Shown here piece by piece: positions 27,348-32,054 of a stretch of DNA of 32,054 nucleotides; within the stretch, counting starts at the first letter, position 1, and the number at the start of each line of letters is the position of its first letter. The stretch spans positions 1 through 32,054 of the forward strand of contig JBDRHK010000019.1 in the NCBI GenBank assembly GCA_043816965.1. Direction: 5' to 3'. The translations under genes were made by a program, and so were the position numbers. The notes under the pieces are model-generated. The model searched no databases. It was not told the DNA's origin and saw only the letters and a program-made list of their open reading frames with translations. Source of the stretch: Candidatus Iainarchaeum sp. GTDB lineage: Archaea; Iainarchaeota; Iainarchaeia; Iainarchaeales; JAFCCJ01.

Positions 27348-27629
27348 TCAGGCAACCAATTCAACTTTCTTCATCCTTTTGGGGATGACAAAATAGTGCT
27401 TGTTTCCGCAGGTTGTGCATTCTGCGATGAAAGTTGGCTTCTTGTTCTGCTTTTTTACGGTTGCCGTGAACTCCGCCTTTCCGCCATAGCCCTGCTTGTG
27501 CTTTCTCACATTTTCCCTTGTTCCCCAGCTCATGGCCCTGGCCGAGCCTGACTTGAATAGCTTGAGCTTGTGCTCTGTATGGCTATTGCATTTGGGGCAA
27601 AAGTCCTTCACAGTCTTTGGTAGATTCAT
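27348..27629 (-). CDS. rpl44e: 50S ribosomal protein L44e (eL42)
   Basis: P...FCPKCNSHTEH, GYGG, KKP, CTTC zinc finger. Confidence 0.95.
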   Translation of the reverse strand: MNLPKTVKDFCPKCNSHTEHKLKLFKSGSARAMSWGTRENVRKHKQGYGGKAEFTATVKKQNKKPTFIAECTTCGNKHYFVIPKRMKKVELVA

Positions 27630-27783: not shown

Positions 27784-28137
27784 TTAAGCTTTGGAAGCCA
27801 AATTCCAAATGGCTTTCACTGCCACGAGCAATGCTGCCGGTGCAACGAAGACCGCAATCTGCAACATGATTGATGCAAGATAGACTCCAATTACCGGAAT
27901 CACGGCCAAGCTGGCAGCAGCTGTACCTGTCAGCATTAGTGCTGCAGCTGCAATCAGGAATTTATGTGTCTCCTTGTCAGTTATGTTAAGCAGGCCAACA
28001 ATTAGCCCCAAAATTACCAACAAGAGAGGTATCCAAGCTGCCAATGGGCCAAGTAGCCCAGTAGCTCCTATTCCTGCAATCACTGCAATTATAATGCCTA
28101 CTATGAAAGCAATGCTACCTATCTTTTGAAGATCCAT
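27784..28137 (-). CDS. Small multi-pass membrane protein (117 aa)
   Basis: ATG 28137 follows a strong GAGGAGGTG RBS; hydrophobic helices with GLIVGLLNITDKE; T-tract downstream. Confidence 0.8.
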   Translation of the reverse strand: MDLQKIGSIAFIVGIIIAVIAGIGATGLLGPLAAWIPLLLVILGLIVGLLNITDKETHKFLIAAAALMLTGTAAASLAVIPVIGVYLASIMLQIAVFVAPAALLVAVKAIWNLASKA

Positions 28138-28322
28138 GGGAAAAACACCTCCTCTTAAACGATTACAAAAGGTTATATATAAACCTTTCTGATTCTGTTT
28201 TTTTTCGGCAAACGCCTTAAAAGCCAACCCGGAGAAAAACAGCAGCCAGGGAGTCCCAAAACCCAGCTAAGCAAACCCGCGCATAGCAAATAATTAAAAA
28301 CAACAAAGCTGTTAATCTAATC

Positions 28323-29120
28323 ATGCTAAGGGCATTTACCAATGCAGGGCTGATGTTTATCAGGAAACCGGCCATTATCCTGCCGGCAATTTTTGTTGGC
28401 ATTCTAAACCTTATTGTCCTGTTTTTTGCATGGGATAATATTGAGGGTTTCCTTTATGAGCTGCTTGTGCTGGGAAAGGCCCCAGGGGGAGGATTTTTCG
28501 ATATTCCTTTCCAGATCTTTCTCTATTATCCAGTAGATATAATTATCTGCGGGATTGCATTCTTTGCAATAGCTATACTCCAGTTCTATCTTCTTTTTGT
28601 GCTTACTGAAATTGTAAAACCCAAAGGAAGCGGAGTCCTGATTGCAATGGGAAAGGGGGTAAAAAGAATTGATGATGCAATTGTTCTCACCCTTTTTGTG
28701 CTTGTTGCCGGCTTTCTTGCGGTGCTGGTCTTATACATAATTATTGGGATTTTGATGGCGTTTGGGGAATTGGGTTTGCTTCTCCTCTTCCTTGCGGGAT
28801 TGCTTTATTTTTTATTGCTGGCTTTCATTATGCTAAAATTATCATTCCTGCCATTTGTGATGGGTGTAAAAGGCATTAAGCTCAAGCCAGCGCTAAAGGA
28901 GGTCTGGAAATGGAGCACAGGCATAAACCGCCTTGCCTCAATACTTGTTATACTGTTGGTGGTGGCATTTATCGGTTCAATAATCAATTCAATAGGAATT
29001 TCCATCGGGGACCTGATTCCCGGTGAATTCTTCGGGTTTATCCCTATTTACTTCTTTATGCTAATTTCGCTTGCCTATTCCATACTGGTGCCCTCTATCT
29101 ATTATTCCTCAACCCAGTAG
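28323..29120 (+). CDS. Multi-pass membrane protein
   Basis: 265 aa with about six hydrophobic segments. Confidence 0.8.
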   Translation: MLRAFTNAGLMFIRKPAIILPAIFVGILNLIVLFFAWDNIEGFLYELLVLGKAPGGGFFDIPFQIFLYYPVDIIICGIAFFAIAILQFYLLFVLTEIVKPKGSGVLIAMGKGVKRIDDAIVLTLFVLVAGFLAVLVLYIIIGILMAFGELGLLLLFLAGLLYFLLLAFIMLKLSFLPFVMGVKGIKLKPALKEVWKWSTGINRLASILVILLVVAFIGSIINSIGISIGDLIPGEFFGFIPIYFFMLISLAYSILVPSIYYSSTQ

Positions 29121-29178: not shown

Positions 29179-32054
29179 ATGGTTAAAATAAGCAAGCTAA
29201 TCTTAAAAAATTTCAAATCATTCAAGAAGGCAGAGATACCCTTCTCAAATGGCTTTACCGCAATAGTTGGCGCAAATGCGAGTGGTAAAAGCAATGTTTT
29301 AGATGCACTGCTTTTCGCTTTTGGTGCCACCTCACTAAAACTTCTTCGGGCATCGCGCCTTACAGAACTTGTACACCATGATGCTGAGGAGGGATATGCA
29401 AAAGTAACTGCAGAATTATCTGACGGGGACAAAACGATTTCAATTTCAAGGATAATCGATCGGCAGGGAAAATCAATTGTAAAGCTTGACGGGAAAAGGA
29501 AAAGCCTTAATGAGGTGGCTGCGCTCCTCCTTGAACTGGGGATAAGACCTACAGGGCACAATATAGTTGTGCAGGGGGATGTTACAAAGATAATTGAAAT
29601 GACCGCAAAGGAGAGAAGGGGAATTATCGATGAGGTTGCAGGGCTGGCCGAATTTGAGGAGAAAAAAGAGGAGTCAATAAAGAAGCTTGACAAGGTCGAT
29701 GCAAGGATTAAGGACGCCACACTTGTTTTGAATGAGAGGGAGTCCTATCTTGAGGGGCTGTCAGCCGAGAGGGAAGCCGCGCTTAAGTTCAATGAGCTGG
29801 GCAAGGAGCTGAAAAGCAGCAAAGCCACAATTATAAACGAGGAATTCAGGAGGATTAAGGCAGAAATGGCCGGCGCAAATAAGAAAAACGATGCCATGAG
29901 AGAAGAGATTGAAAGAAGGATTAAGGAAAAGGAATCCCTGAAATCTGAGGAAAAGGAGCTGGAGAAAAAGATTGAGGGGATTACTGAAAAGATGATTCAT
30001 GCCAGCGAAAAAACCTATTCAACCTTCGGGCGCGAGGTTGAGGAAAAGAAGGGGGAATTGCGGCTTGTGAAAGAGAGGCTTGAGAGGGCGGAAGAAAGGA
30101 TTGTTGCAAGCTCCTCAAGGCAGCAGGAACTGAAAGAAAGGCAGAGGGAACTGCTGAAAATTAAACTGGAAAAAAAGGAGCATCTGAAGATTCTTACAGA
30201 TAAGATGGGTGAGCTCAAATCACAGATAGGGAGAATTTCCTCCCTTGTTGAGGCAAGGTCGGCGAAAGTTGAAAAGAAAGGGGACAAGGTTAAAAGCGAT
30301 GAGGAAAGGCTTGCCGCAGTTATGGATGATCTTGGGGAGTTGAGGAAGGAATTTTATTCGAAGGGCTCGAAAGCCGACTCCTTGTCCAGGGAGATTGAGA
30401 TGAAAGGAGAAGAGAGGGATAAGCTGCTTAAGGCTGTTGATGATTTAAGAAACAGGGTTTTAAGGAGAAAGGAGCTGGAGAAAAAGATTGAGAAACTGTC
30501 CTCCCCAAACCCAAGGGGCCTGATTGAGAGAAATGATGTGGAGAATGGCTCTGAAAGGAATATGCTGGGATACCTTAAAAGCCGGAGGGATTCCCTTAAG
30601 GAAGCAAAGAAAAGCATTGGTGAGGCCGATTCTTTTTGCCCCATATGCGAAAATGTGCTTAATGAAAAGGCGAAAAGCGGGCTGATTGCAAAAAAGGCAA
30701 AGGAAATTGAGGAAGCCGAAAAGGGAATTGTTCTACAGGAGGGAAAGATATCCAGGCTCCTGAAGGAGAGGAAGGAGCTTGAGGCAAGGCTTGAGGAAAT
30801 GCAGAAAACAGGGTATGAGATAAAGGCCCTTGCCCCCAGCCAGGGGGAACTTGAGGAGGCCGAGTCAAAACTGAAAAGGCTGAACCTTGATGAAATGAGG
30901 AAGGAAATTGGCTTCCTGAATTCCTCAAAGGCTGTGCTGGAGGGGAAGATCAAAAAACTTGAGGCCGAGAAAAAAGAAACCCATGACAGGGTTGAAGCTT
31001 TCAGGAAAAGCGAGGAGAATGTCGAACTTGGGAGTTTAATCGACAAGCAAAACAAGCTGCAGGAGGCAAAGGGCCTGCAGGAGAATGATTATGCGAGAAC
31101 AGAGACAGAACTTAAGGAGGGCATAGCCAGGGAGGAAGGGGCGATTGCAAAGGAGATGGAATCGCTGTTGGATGAATTCGGAAAACTGAAGATTGAGAAG
31201 GAGAAAAACAGCGGAATCTTTTCCGGGCTTTCTGAGGAAATTGAAAAAAGGAAGGCAGAGCTTGACAGGGCCGAAAATGAAAACAGGCTGCTTGAGGAGG
31301 AGAAGGGAAGGCTTGGCACAAAGCTCTCAAACCTCAATGAGAAGCTTGCAACAACAGAGGCAAAGGTTGAAATTCTTGAGAAGGGGCTTAACGAGATTGC
31401 GATAGAGCAGTCAAAGAACGAGGTAAGGGTTGTCGACCTTGAGCAGGAGCTAAATGAGTATGAGGGGGTAAAAATGCTGAAGGAGTTTACCCTTCCTGAA
31501 CTGAAGAAACGGGTTCCTGAAATTGAGCGGGAGATTGCGGCTTTGGGTGCAATCAACATGAAGGCACTGGAAAGCTTTGACCATTACCGTGTTGAGGTGG
31601 AAGATATGAGGGGGAAGGCCAAAAAGCTTGATGAGGAGAGGCTGGCTGTGCTTAACCTTATCGACAAAATTGAGGTGAAAAAGCTTAACATATTCATGGA
31701 CTGCTTTAACCATATAAACAGGAAGTTCAACGAACTCTATTATTCATTCTTTAGCGGGGAGGGAAAATTGGGCCTCAGCGATGAGGAAAACCCGCTTGAG
31801 GGAGGTCTGCTGATACAGGCAAAGTACAAGGAGGACAAGCTGAAAAGCATTGATGCAATGAGCGGAGGGGAAAAGAGCCTTACTGCGCTGGCGTTCCTTT
31901 TCGCAATCCAGTCCTTTGAGCCTGCGCCTTTTTATATTTTAGACGAGGTTGATGCAGCACTCGATAAGGAAAACTCGCTTAAAATCGGCAGGATGATAAA
32001 GGAGATAAGCGGGCAGAGCCAGTTTATTTCAATAACCCACAATGATTCAATAGT
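29179..32054 (+). CDS. smc: Smc-family chromosome segregation ATPase with central CxxC hook; 3' end outside window; not in ORF track
   Basis: Manually translated, open for 958 codons. Motifs: NFKSF, Walker A GANASGKSN, LRA, GHNIVVQGDV, LGAINMKA, signature MSGGEKS, FYILDEVDAALD, QFISITH; CPIC at residues 487-490. Confidence 0.92.
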   Translation, partial: MVKISKLILKNFKSFKKAEIPFSNGFTAIVGANASGKSNVLDALLFAFGATSLKLLRASRLTELVHHDAEEGYAKVTAELSDGDKTISISRIIDRQGKSIVKLDGKRKSLNEVAALLLELGIRPTGHNIVVQGDVTKIIEMTAKERRGIIDEVAGLAEFEEKKEESIKKLDKVDARIKDATLVLNERESYLEGLSAEREAALKFNELGKELKSSKATIINEEFRRIKAEMAGANKKNDAMREEIERRIKEKESLKSEEKELEKKIEGITEKMIHASEKTYSTFGREVEEKKGELRLVKERLERAEERIVASSSRQQELKERQRELLKIKLEKKEHLKILTDKMGELKSQIGRISSLVEARSAKVEKKGDKVKSDEERLAAVMDDLGELRKEFYSKGSKADSLSREIEMKGEERDKLLKAVDDLRNRVLRRKELEKKIEKLSSPNPRGLIERNDVENGSERNMLGYLKSRRDSLKEAKKSIGEADSFCPICENVLNEKAKSGLIAKKAKEIEEAEKGIVLQEGKISRLLKERKELEARLEEMQKTGYEIKALAPSQGELEEAESKLKRLNLDEMRKEIGFLNSSKAVLEGKIKKLEAEKKETHDRVEAFRKSEENVELGSLIDKQNKLQEAKGLQENDYARTETELKEGIAREEGAIAKEMESLLDEFGKLKIEKEKNSGIFSGLSEEIEKRKAELDRAENENRLLEEEKGRLGTKLSNLNEKLATTEAKVEILEKGLNEIAIEQSKNEVRVVDLEQELNEYEGVKMLKEFTLPELKKRVPEIEREIAALGAINMKALESFDHYRVEVEDMRGKAKKLDEERLAVLNLIDKIEVKKLNIFMDCFNHINRKFNELYYSFFSGEGKLGLSDEENPLEGGLLIQAKYKEDKLKSIDAMSGGEKSLTALAFLFAIQSFEPAPFYILDEVDAALDKENSLKIGRMIKEISGQSQFISITHNDSI

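Follow-up and report, generated by a model that had tools for sequence, protein, structure and literature searches.

The 32,054-base window analysed here is the whole of contig C19 from a genome of Candidatus Iainarchaeum sp. (DPANN), a metagenome bin of 1.34 Mb in 109 contigs that is 86% complete, and it ends in an smc gene whose product carries, at its midpoint, a CPxC motif like that of the Rad50 zinc hook and no recognizable hinge. The gene is a single open frame of 958 residues on the + strand, which starts with an ATG at 29179, has its final complete codon at 32052, and meets no stop codon before the window ends. The motifs reported in the original prediction, a reading of the sequence alone, all lie where it had placed them: NFKSF at residues 11–15, LRA at 56–58, and HNIVVQGDV at 127–135 in the N-terminal part, CPIC at 487–490, and LGAINMKA at 789–796 (nt 31543–31566), MSGGEKSLTALAFLFAIQ at 894–911, and DEVDAALD at 922–929 in the C-terminal part. 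A Walker A sequence, GANASGKS, is at nt 29269–29292, and the protein has three cysteines in total, at residues 487, 490, and 842. We predict a full length of ~990 residues, as was also proposed at the outset, because the 86%-identical orthologue from a same-genus genome (G057) is 989 amino acids long. A tblastn search of the whole assembly for the missing ~31 C-terminal residues, using the last 60 residues of this orthologue, matched the window's own end only, and no match in this assembly was found for the rotamase gene that lies downstream in the orthologue's genome. The features are listed in the table.

Features of the smc locus and of related genes. Positions without a contig or locus name are those of the window; residues are those of the Smc protein.
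Feature	Location	Strand	Details
smc gene, hook type	29179..32052	+	958 codons; 3′ end cut by contig end, ~31 codons missing
N-terminal half of ATPase head, residues 1–156	29179..29646	+	Walker A, LRA (R57), Q-loop HNIVVQGDV; profile and model
N-terminal coiled-coil arm, residues 157–482, one break at 442–444	29647..30624	+	AlphaFold2 model; SMC_prok_A alignment to residue 438
Apex loop with hook, residues 483–495	30625..30663	+	AlphaFold2 model; best structural match 1L8D
CPIC, putative zinc-binding pair C487 and C490	30637..30648	+	residues 487–490; conserved in relatives
C-terminal coiled-coil arm, residues 496–788	30664..31542	+	model breaks at 551–553, 568–569, 610–611, and 762–771; SMC_prok_B alignment of residues 500–956
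LGAINMKA and C-terminal half of head, residues 789–958, end missing	31543..32052	+	signature MSGGEKSL, Walker B/D-loop DEVDAALD, H-loop THN
L44e gene and two hydrophobic, membrane-like protein genes (no family match)	27348–27629, 27784–28227, 28323–29120	-, -, +	just upstream of smc
scpA	C80:10705–10950 (match, 32.6 bits); gene C80:10570–11169 (L014:1366–1965)	+	200 codons present
scpB	C79:4588–5031		profile match 110.2 bits
rad50	C22:27549–29609 (L003:532–2592)	-	686 amino acids, short arms, CPTC hook, DEPTHNLD D-loop
Globular middle of family f6 Smcs	L034:3725–4147, L035:3363–3785, L036:3752–4189		no Pfam match

The heads and arms of the protein are those of Smc, not of Rad50, ASRP, or arcadin. 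Among the NCBIfam hidden Markov models, SMC_prok_A (TIGR02169) gives 500.7 bits and places window residues 4–438 on model positions 2–441, and SMC_prok_B (TIGR02168) aligns residues 500–956 to positions 671–1154; the heads and near full-length arms align on the Smc models, and therefore only the models' hinge part is skipped. The best scores from the other models are 106 bits for Rad50, 104.9 bits for ASRP (NF045487, whose curated cut-off of 300 bits is not reached), and 43 bits for arcadin-4, a pattern in keeping with what the motifs had led the original prediction to expect; the Pfam SMC_N model gives 173 bits. Against solved structures, the best matches are the Pyrococcus Smc heads 5xei (281.6 bits), 5xns (249 bits), and 4i99 (230 bits), compared with 45 bits for the best Rad50; identity to the Pyrococcus Smc head pieces is 43–44%, and the top Foldseek matches of the whole-protein model are condensin, Smc5/6, and Pyrococcus Smc. 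All of the elements of an Smc-type ABC head are present (Walker A, the LRA arginine, Q-loop, signature, Walker B, a DxxDAALD D-loop, and H-loop), and in an alignment of 106 hook-type relatives Walker A, R57, Q-loop, signature, Walker B, D-loop, and H-loop are invariant. The D-loop reads DEVDAALD and not DEPT, as would be expected of a Rad50-type head.

A hinge was found neither in this protein nor in this genome, nor in any sampled genome of the order. The window Smc has no match to SMC_hinge (PF06470) at E ≤ 1 and no hinge glycine motif (G-x5-6-G-x3-GG). An AlphaFold2 model built with 106 aligned relatives (mean predicted local distance difference test [pLDDT] of 81.5) runs from the head along helices 157–441 and 445–482 to a loop at residues 483–495, and back to the head in helices that begin at 496; the loop has 13 residues and a small beta bridge, and there is no globular middle. 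Pfam, the motif search, and the model are in agreement with the initial description of a midpoint CPIC flanked by coiled coil with no hinge segment. SMC_hinge was likewise not found in the 86%-complete genome, in a search that was positive in 11 of 14 reference genomes used as a control. SMC_N is above its cut-off in two genes only, smc and the 686-amino-acid protein on C22, and no second, hinged Smc was found in the genome; the smc of the window is most likely the organism's only Smc. An ABC-F protein on C84 was weighed as a possible further SMC-like gene and set aside. We then sampled 151 genomes of the phylum, 140 of them from the window's order (families f1–f24 and G000) and 11 from sister orders of the same class: SMC_hinge is present in 0/140 genomes of the order versus 10/11 of the sister orders (10/151 overall).

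Judged by sequence profiles and by a structural model, the apex is a Rad50-type hook, a helix–loop–helix with a conserved CPxC that is predicted to bind zinc and to dimerise. The call rests on the family profile, because the window's own apex scores only 13.6–14.7 bits against Rad50_zn_hook (PF04423; cut-off 24.3 bits; E 0.062 at 13.6 bits), a weak match located at the CPIC, and a Pfam scan with the whole window Smc has no match to this model at E ≤ 1. Apex segments of 104 residues from 18 Smc genes are 18–28% identical to that of the window, except for the same-genus copy at 81%, and the only invariant columns in their alignment are C487, P488, and C490; every one of the 18 matches Rad50_zn_hook at E ≤ 0.1 (1.2e-9 for the best), and as whole proteins two relatives exceed the cut-off (L044, 33.6 bits; P0172, 30.7 bits). 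When the 18-apex profile is run against all PDB sequences, the Pyrococcus furiosus Rad50 hook 1L8D comes first (E 9.5e-13, 51.6 bits, 95 residues), followed by 6ZFF (1.3e-12) and the human RAD50 hook 5gox (6e-4), with scores that are somewhat inflated by coiled-coil composition (bias 12.9 bits). The likeness reaches past the cysteines, in the pattern LKKAK-x-CPxC-x-R/K-x-L, and the profile also matches the hook of the genome's own Rad50 (C22:28404–28700, 46.6 bits, E 3.9e-12). Over the 151 genomes, the 50 best matches of the profile, in 50 genomes, are inside Smc frames, as compared by eye from their coordinates; later matches lie in frames of ~690–820 amino acids taken as Rad50, an assignment that family models confirm for this genome's own Rad50 only. 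The AlphaFold2 model of the apex is a helical hairpin (pLDDT 88.7) whose closest PDB structure by Foldseek is again 1L8D (template modelling score 0.82–0.84; root-mean-square deviation 1.6–2.3 Å; E 1.3e-3, just above the 0.001 line), with 5gox, 6zff, and then generic helical hairpins behind it. A zinc dimer prediction with two copies of residues 410–570 and zinc, run with no controls, scored 0.07 (mark 0.42) and has no bearing either way.

The midpoint CPxC is conserved in relatives. A word-indexed search returned 1,762 proteins at E ≤ 0.001 among 7,999 scored candidates, and in the best 120 of these the precomputed Pfam column gives PF06470 in 0/120 and PF04423 in 8/120; their database names are ‘AAA family ATPase’ or ‘chromosome segregation protein’, from Candidatus Diapherotrites, ainarchaeum, Micrarchaeota, and ‘archaeon’. 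Exactly one CxxC, in every case a CPxC, is present in 113 of 121 proteins (P0001–P0121), at about residue 487 unless an intein displaces it, and none in the other 8; since 113 of the 121 best matches carry the motif we take it to be more than chance. CPxC and the hinge glycine motif occur together in 0/252 collected proteins. An exhaustive search gave 26,220 proteins at E ≤ 0.001; among the clusters listed, the best ~45 are mostly ~985–1,010 amino acids long and align to the query in a single stretch, and later ones are canonical Smcs of 1,130–1,190 amino acids that align in two stretches. C487, P488, and C490 are invariant in the alignment of 106 hook-type proteins, which were picked for CPxC; the motif's presence is there by construction, but its falling in a single alignment column is not.

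We considered whether a chimeric assembly, or a deletion in the bin, had joined two Smc halves, as might be suspected of a gene that runs off a contig end in a fragmented, 109-contig bin. Such an artefact is extremely improbable. The same architecture, in frames of 984–1,058 amino acids, recurs in dozens of independently assembled genomes, including the one- or two-contig genomes G001, G002, and G014, and the 113 of 121 best database matches that share the design come from several sources. A 310-base contig of public run X1, which may be the source sample, also spans 30426–30735 with zero differences. A 159-base contig of RNA library X2 covers 30351–30509, which is not proof of transcription. 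The contigs from the public runs are short, none of them reaching across the entire stretch, and parts left uncovered carry no meaning.

Genes for both ScpA and ScpB are present in the genome, on contigs C80 and C79, and not downstream of smc, where the original prediction had looked to them; what comes after smc in the same-genus relative is a PpiC-type rotamase gene in convergent orientation. Contig C80 ends within scpA, leaving unassembled the C-terminal winged-helix part of ScpA, the part expected to bind the head of Smc. ScpA is found in 145/151 genomes of the phylum sample and ScpB in 139/151, and each is in 55/55 of the genomes that are ≥90% complete. The order thus keeps ScpA and ScpB, and as no hinge was found in its sampled genomes, these partners have been retained without one.

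The protein might instead be a diverged SMC-like paralogue, acting in repair, defence, or ClsN-like compartment control and not as a condensin Smc, given that it misses the curated Smc cut-off, lacks the hinge that is usually treated as defining, and has no kleisin gene beside it. Hook-bearing SMC-related families are also known in archaea (PMC9389158). We regard a paralogue as quite improbable, however: besides Rad50 this is the sole Smc-like gene found in the genome, its Smc model scores are ~5 times those of Rad50, ASRP, and arcadin-4, and a match to P0001 at E ≤ 1e-20 is present in 144/151 of the phylum sample. In addition, ScpA and ScpB persist in all 55 high-quality genomes although the order shows no hinged Smc that could be their partner, and the synteny upstream of smc (L44e and a membrane-protein gene) is kept in the same-genus relative.

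The apex is variable across the order and its neighbours. Sorting 31 Smc frames taken from the relatives' loci by apex type, we found a CPxC hook in its long form in 14 (981–1,025 amino acids, with the motif near residue 488; one of them, L025, with an intein) and in a short form in five (772–825 amino acids, motif at 376–430); seven have neither hinge motif nor CxxC, four of 926–949 amino acids and three of 1,083–1,096 amino acids that belong to family f6. The remaining five are from sister orders: three carry the hinge glycine motif, and two that this motif misses have the Pfam hinge. The short-arm hook Smcs L037–L041 (families f10, f12, and f23) have ~100 residues fewer per arm than the long forms, and family f10 contains both. 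Smcs of 905–949 amino acids with neither cysteine pair nor hinge, nested among hook forms, are represented by L032 and L033 (f4), L042 (f21), and L043 (f24) and by the collected proteins P0022, P0027, P0049–P0051, P0053, P0105, P0126, P0129, P0130, P0138, and P0139. Some lineages can therefore do without the cysteine pair, and zinc may not be all that dimerisation depends on.

To place the heads, we used a tree of the head only, with 79 rows and 363 columns, made by a quick IQ-TREE run in which branches have Shimodaira–Hasegawa-like approximate likelihood ratio test (SH-aLRT) support only. Its rows include 47 hand-picked from the 252 collected proteins and 30 locus-derived frames under 1,300 amino acids, intein-bearing proteins above 1,300 amino acids being excluded; ASRP and arcadin are outside the tree and were compared with the window Smc by model score only. 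The heads are placed with other Smc rows and well apart from the genome's own Rad50, as the original prediction had anticipated; this Rad50 is on a branch of length 10, and all Smc end branches are below 1.1. A 45-row set (support 88, not starred) takes in all hinge-less rows and, in addition, two rows with a hinge: L047, which is from a sister order, and P0134 (1,012 amino acids, with a 96-bit hinge). Constraining the 43 hinge-less rows, a group defined after the tree was seen, to a single clade lowers the log-likelihood by 2.72 units, a constraint that the approximately unbiased test does not reject (p-AU of 0.438). The starred 14-row clade that contains the window Smc includes three cysteine-less rows (P0027, P0049, and P0051), and others are elsewhere; with cysteine-less forms scattered in this way among hook forms, the cysteines have been lost at least twice. 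P0149 (919 amino acids), which came from a representative search, sits among the canonical hinged rows and has neither hinge nor hook by Pfam; it is possibly an independent hinge loss outside the order.

Could the chains of this Smc-derived, hinge-less protein be held mainly by arm-to-arm (rod) contacts or an apical helical bundle, with the cysteines acting as a turn stabiliser or a redox or metal sensor? The relatives of 905–949 amino acids that lack CxxC and hinge within the hook clade, three of them in the window's own 14-row set, are what such an arrangement would lead one to expect, as are P0149 among the canonical rows and a clade of marine Actinobacteria SMCs reported to lack both hinge and CXXC (PMC12153180). 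We nonetheless think it unlikely, in that only C487, P488, and C490 never change among the 104 apex residues, which otherwise vary, likeness to the Rad50 hook extends past the cysteines, and the two cysteines of one chain are insufficient for a complete zinc site.

Taken with the distribution of hinges, the tree would be read most simply as the hinge having been lost once, at the order's base, which it allows and does not prove. The original prediction saw here a natural chimera of Smc head and Rad50 hook, without a hinge; the architecture stands, and what does not is a chimeric event in a single genome, as this is the state of a whole DPANN order. We lean, by a small margin over even odds, toward a history in which the entire order runs Smc–ScpAB hinge-free, one hinge loss having been followed by use of a hook of Rad50 origin as the arm link, and later by loss of the cysteines or shortening of both arms by ~100 residues.

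For the smc of the window, we put at roughly 80% the probability that it encodes the ATPase of an Smc–ScpAB chromosome-folding complex whose hinge (~170 residues) was lost in the order's ancestor, and in which a Rad50-type hook, predicted to bind zinc and to dimerise, is found instead at the tips of near full-length arms. By analogy, a zinc-linked dimer would work with ScpAB as follows. Each Smc chain would fold back into a long antiparallel coiled coil with an ATPase head at one end. At the other end a single shared zinc ion, coordinated by the two CPxC motifs with their four cysteines in the manner of Rad50 (1L8D), would link the arm tips of two chains. ATP would bring the two heads together, ScpA (the kleisin) and ScpB would close the ring, and the complex would be expected to entrap DNA and to travel along it like a hinged Smc.

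Several observations weigh against this reading. The window copy of smc is truncated at the contig end, its last ~31 residues not having been found in the assembly, and scpA too is truncated at a contig end; scpA and scpB are not adjacent to smc; and the genome, at 86% complete, leaves room for a second smc. Both the window Smc (500.7 bits) and its full-length same-genus orthologue (546.6 bits) fall under the curated SMC_prok_A cut-off of 729.4 bits, although a score below it is expected because ~170 model positions, those of the hinge, are absent. The window's own apex is under the Rad50_zn_hook cut-off, and relatives of 905–949 amino acids with neither hinge nor CxxC are nested among the hook forms. 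The head tree, finally, is a quick one with SH-aLRT support only, and its hinge-less set (support 88) includes two hinged rows.

The protein shares with canonical Smc–ScpAB (TIGR02169/TIGR02168; Pyrococcus heads) the head motifs, head fold, joint region, arm length, and presence of ScpA and ScpB, and differs in having ~13 apex residues with CPxC where a hinge of ~170 residues (PF06470) is expected. With the Rad50/SbcC hook (PF04423; 1L8D, 6ZFF, and 5GOX) it has in common an antiparallel coiled coil tipped by a CPxC, together with the LKKAK...CPxC...L flanks; in contrast to Rad50/SbcC, its heads are those of Smc, with a DEVDAALD D-loop, and a separate 686-amino-acid Rad50 with CPTC and DEPTHNLD is encoded in the genome. 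The same design has been engineered: for the Bacillus subtilis Smc in which the Rad50 hook of P. furiosus replaces the hinge, the Figure 5 legend of Buermann et al. (2017, PMC5344682) uses the words ‘a functional Smc(Zh) chimera’, as the original prediction had indicated. The hook in that construct, 1L8D, is the one that the profile of natural apices matches at E 9.5e-13; unlike Smc(Zh), the form described here is natural, ancient, and order-wide, with arm lengths of its own in long (~985–1,025 amino acids) and short (772–831 amino acids) forms. A reverse swap, fission-yeast Rad50 with a MukB hinge, is reported to be functional (PMC6969161), and exchange of hinge and hook is by these precedents known to be workable in both directions.

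The original prediction's mention of ClsN-type, hook-bearing SMC-related proteins also holds: the ASRPs (ClsN and Sph1/2) are archaeal SMC-superfamily proteins with a zinc hook (Yoshinaga et al. 2022, PMC9389158). A zinc-hook motif takes the place of the hinge in both, but the window Smc gives 105 bits on ASRP (NF045487) versus 500.7 on Smc, and the ASRPs are a separate family, not known as a partner of ScpAB. The hinge-less SMC clade of marine Actinobacteria, reported to be without CXXC (Sussfeld et al. 2025, PMC12153180), resembles the present proteins in having Smc-like heads on coiled coil, no hinge, and an uncultured source, whereas those described here are archaeal and carry CPxC. In a full-text library that lacks most subscription journals, no paper turned up on a zinc hook in a naturally occurring Smc. 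The analysis adds that the hinge is missing across the order but present in sister orders, that ScpA and ScpB are retained, that the apex resembles Rad50 hooks, the genome's own among them, at profile level, and that several apex types are spread within the order.

The genome's Rad50 on C22 shows the reverse score pattern to the window Smc (207 bits on Rad50 versus 70 on SMC) and, on these scores and its motifs, is evidently a genuine Rad50. The original prediction had paired a separate rad50 with mre11; the first is borne out, with a DEPT-type D-loop, and the second is not, as no Mre11 gene was found beside rad50 or in the 86%-complete genome. Two Metallophos matches were rejected as Mre11, one being the PolD small subunit (C3) and the other an SbcD-related phosphoesterase, TIGR00024 (C69). 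Upstream of smc, the window and the same-genus relative are alike in having a gene for ribosomal protein L44e and then one for a 265-amino-acid protein, which looks membrane-bound by sequence and has no family match.

Two further features were seen in the orthologues. Many contain inteins, with or without a LAGLIDADG endonuclease, in frames of 1,198–1,576 amino acids (for example, P0011, P0015, P0018, P0020, and P0032; G001:C1:431056–433821; and G090:C21, L025); the intein sits in the Walker A region, because the match of these orthologues to the window Smc starts at residue 36–37. The window smc is intein-free. The family f6 Smcs (15 sampled genomes; 1,083–1,096 amino acids) have a conserved, non-coiled middle of ~100 residues with the pattern F-GFLD ... 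NFVVL ... DGFYFDGF, whose alignment to the hinge by hhalign is not significant (E 0.28, probability 0.2); this middle could be the remnant of a hinge or a new element.

SMC proteins are usually defined in part by their hinge, for which roles in DNA binding and as a DNA entry gate have been proposed. The present proteins suggest that the essential job of the hinge in these cells is to hold two arm tips together. If this is true, the order would offer natural experiments in hinge replacement and in arm length, and the DNA-binding and gate roles of the hinge would be non-essential in a prokaryotic condensin, with a constitutive link between arm tips usually kept. The hinged sister orders, long-arm hook forms, short-arm hook forms, cysteine-less forms, and the form with an unexplained globular middle make up a graded natural series, which could be used to study the tuning of arm length and what the hinge contributes to loop extrusion. 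For annotation, it means that pipelines under-call Smc in these archaea, where many copies are named only ‘AAA family ATPase’.

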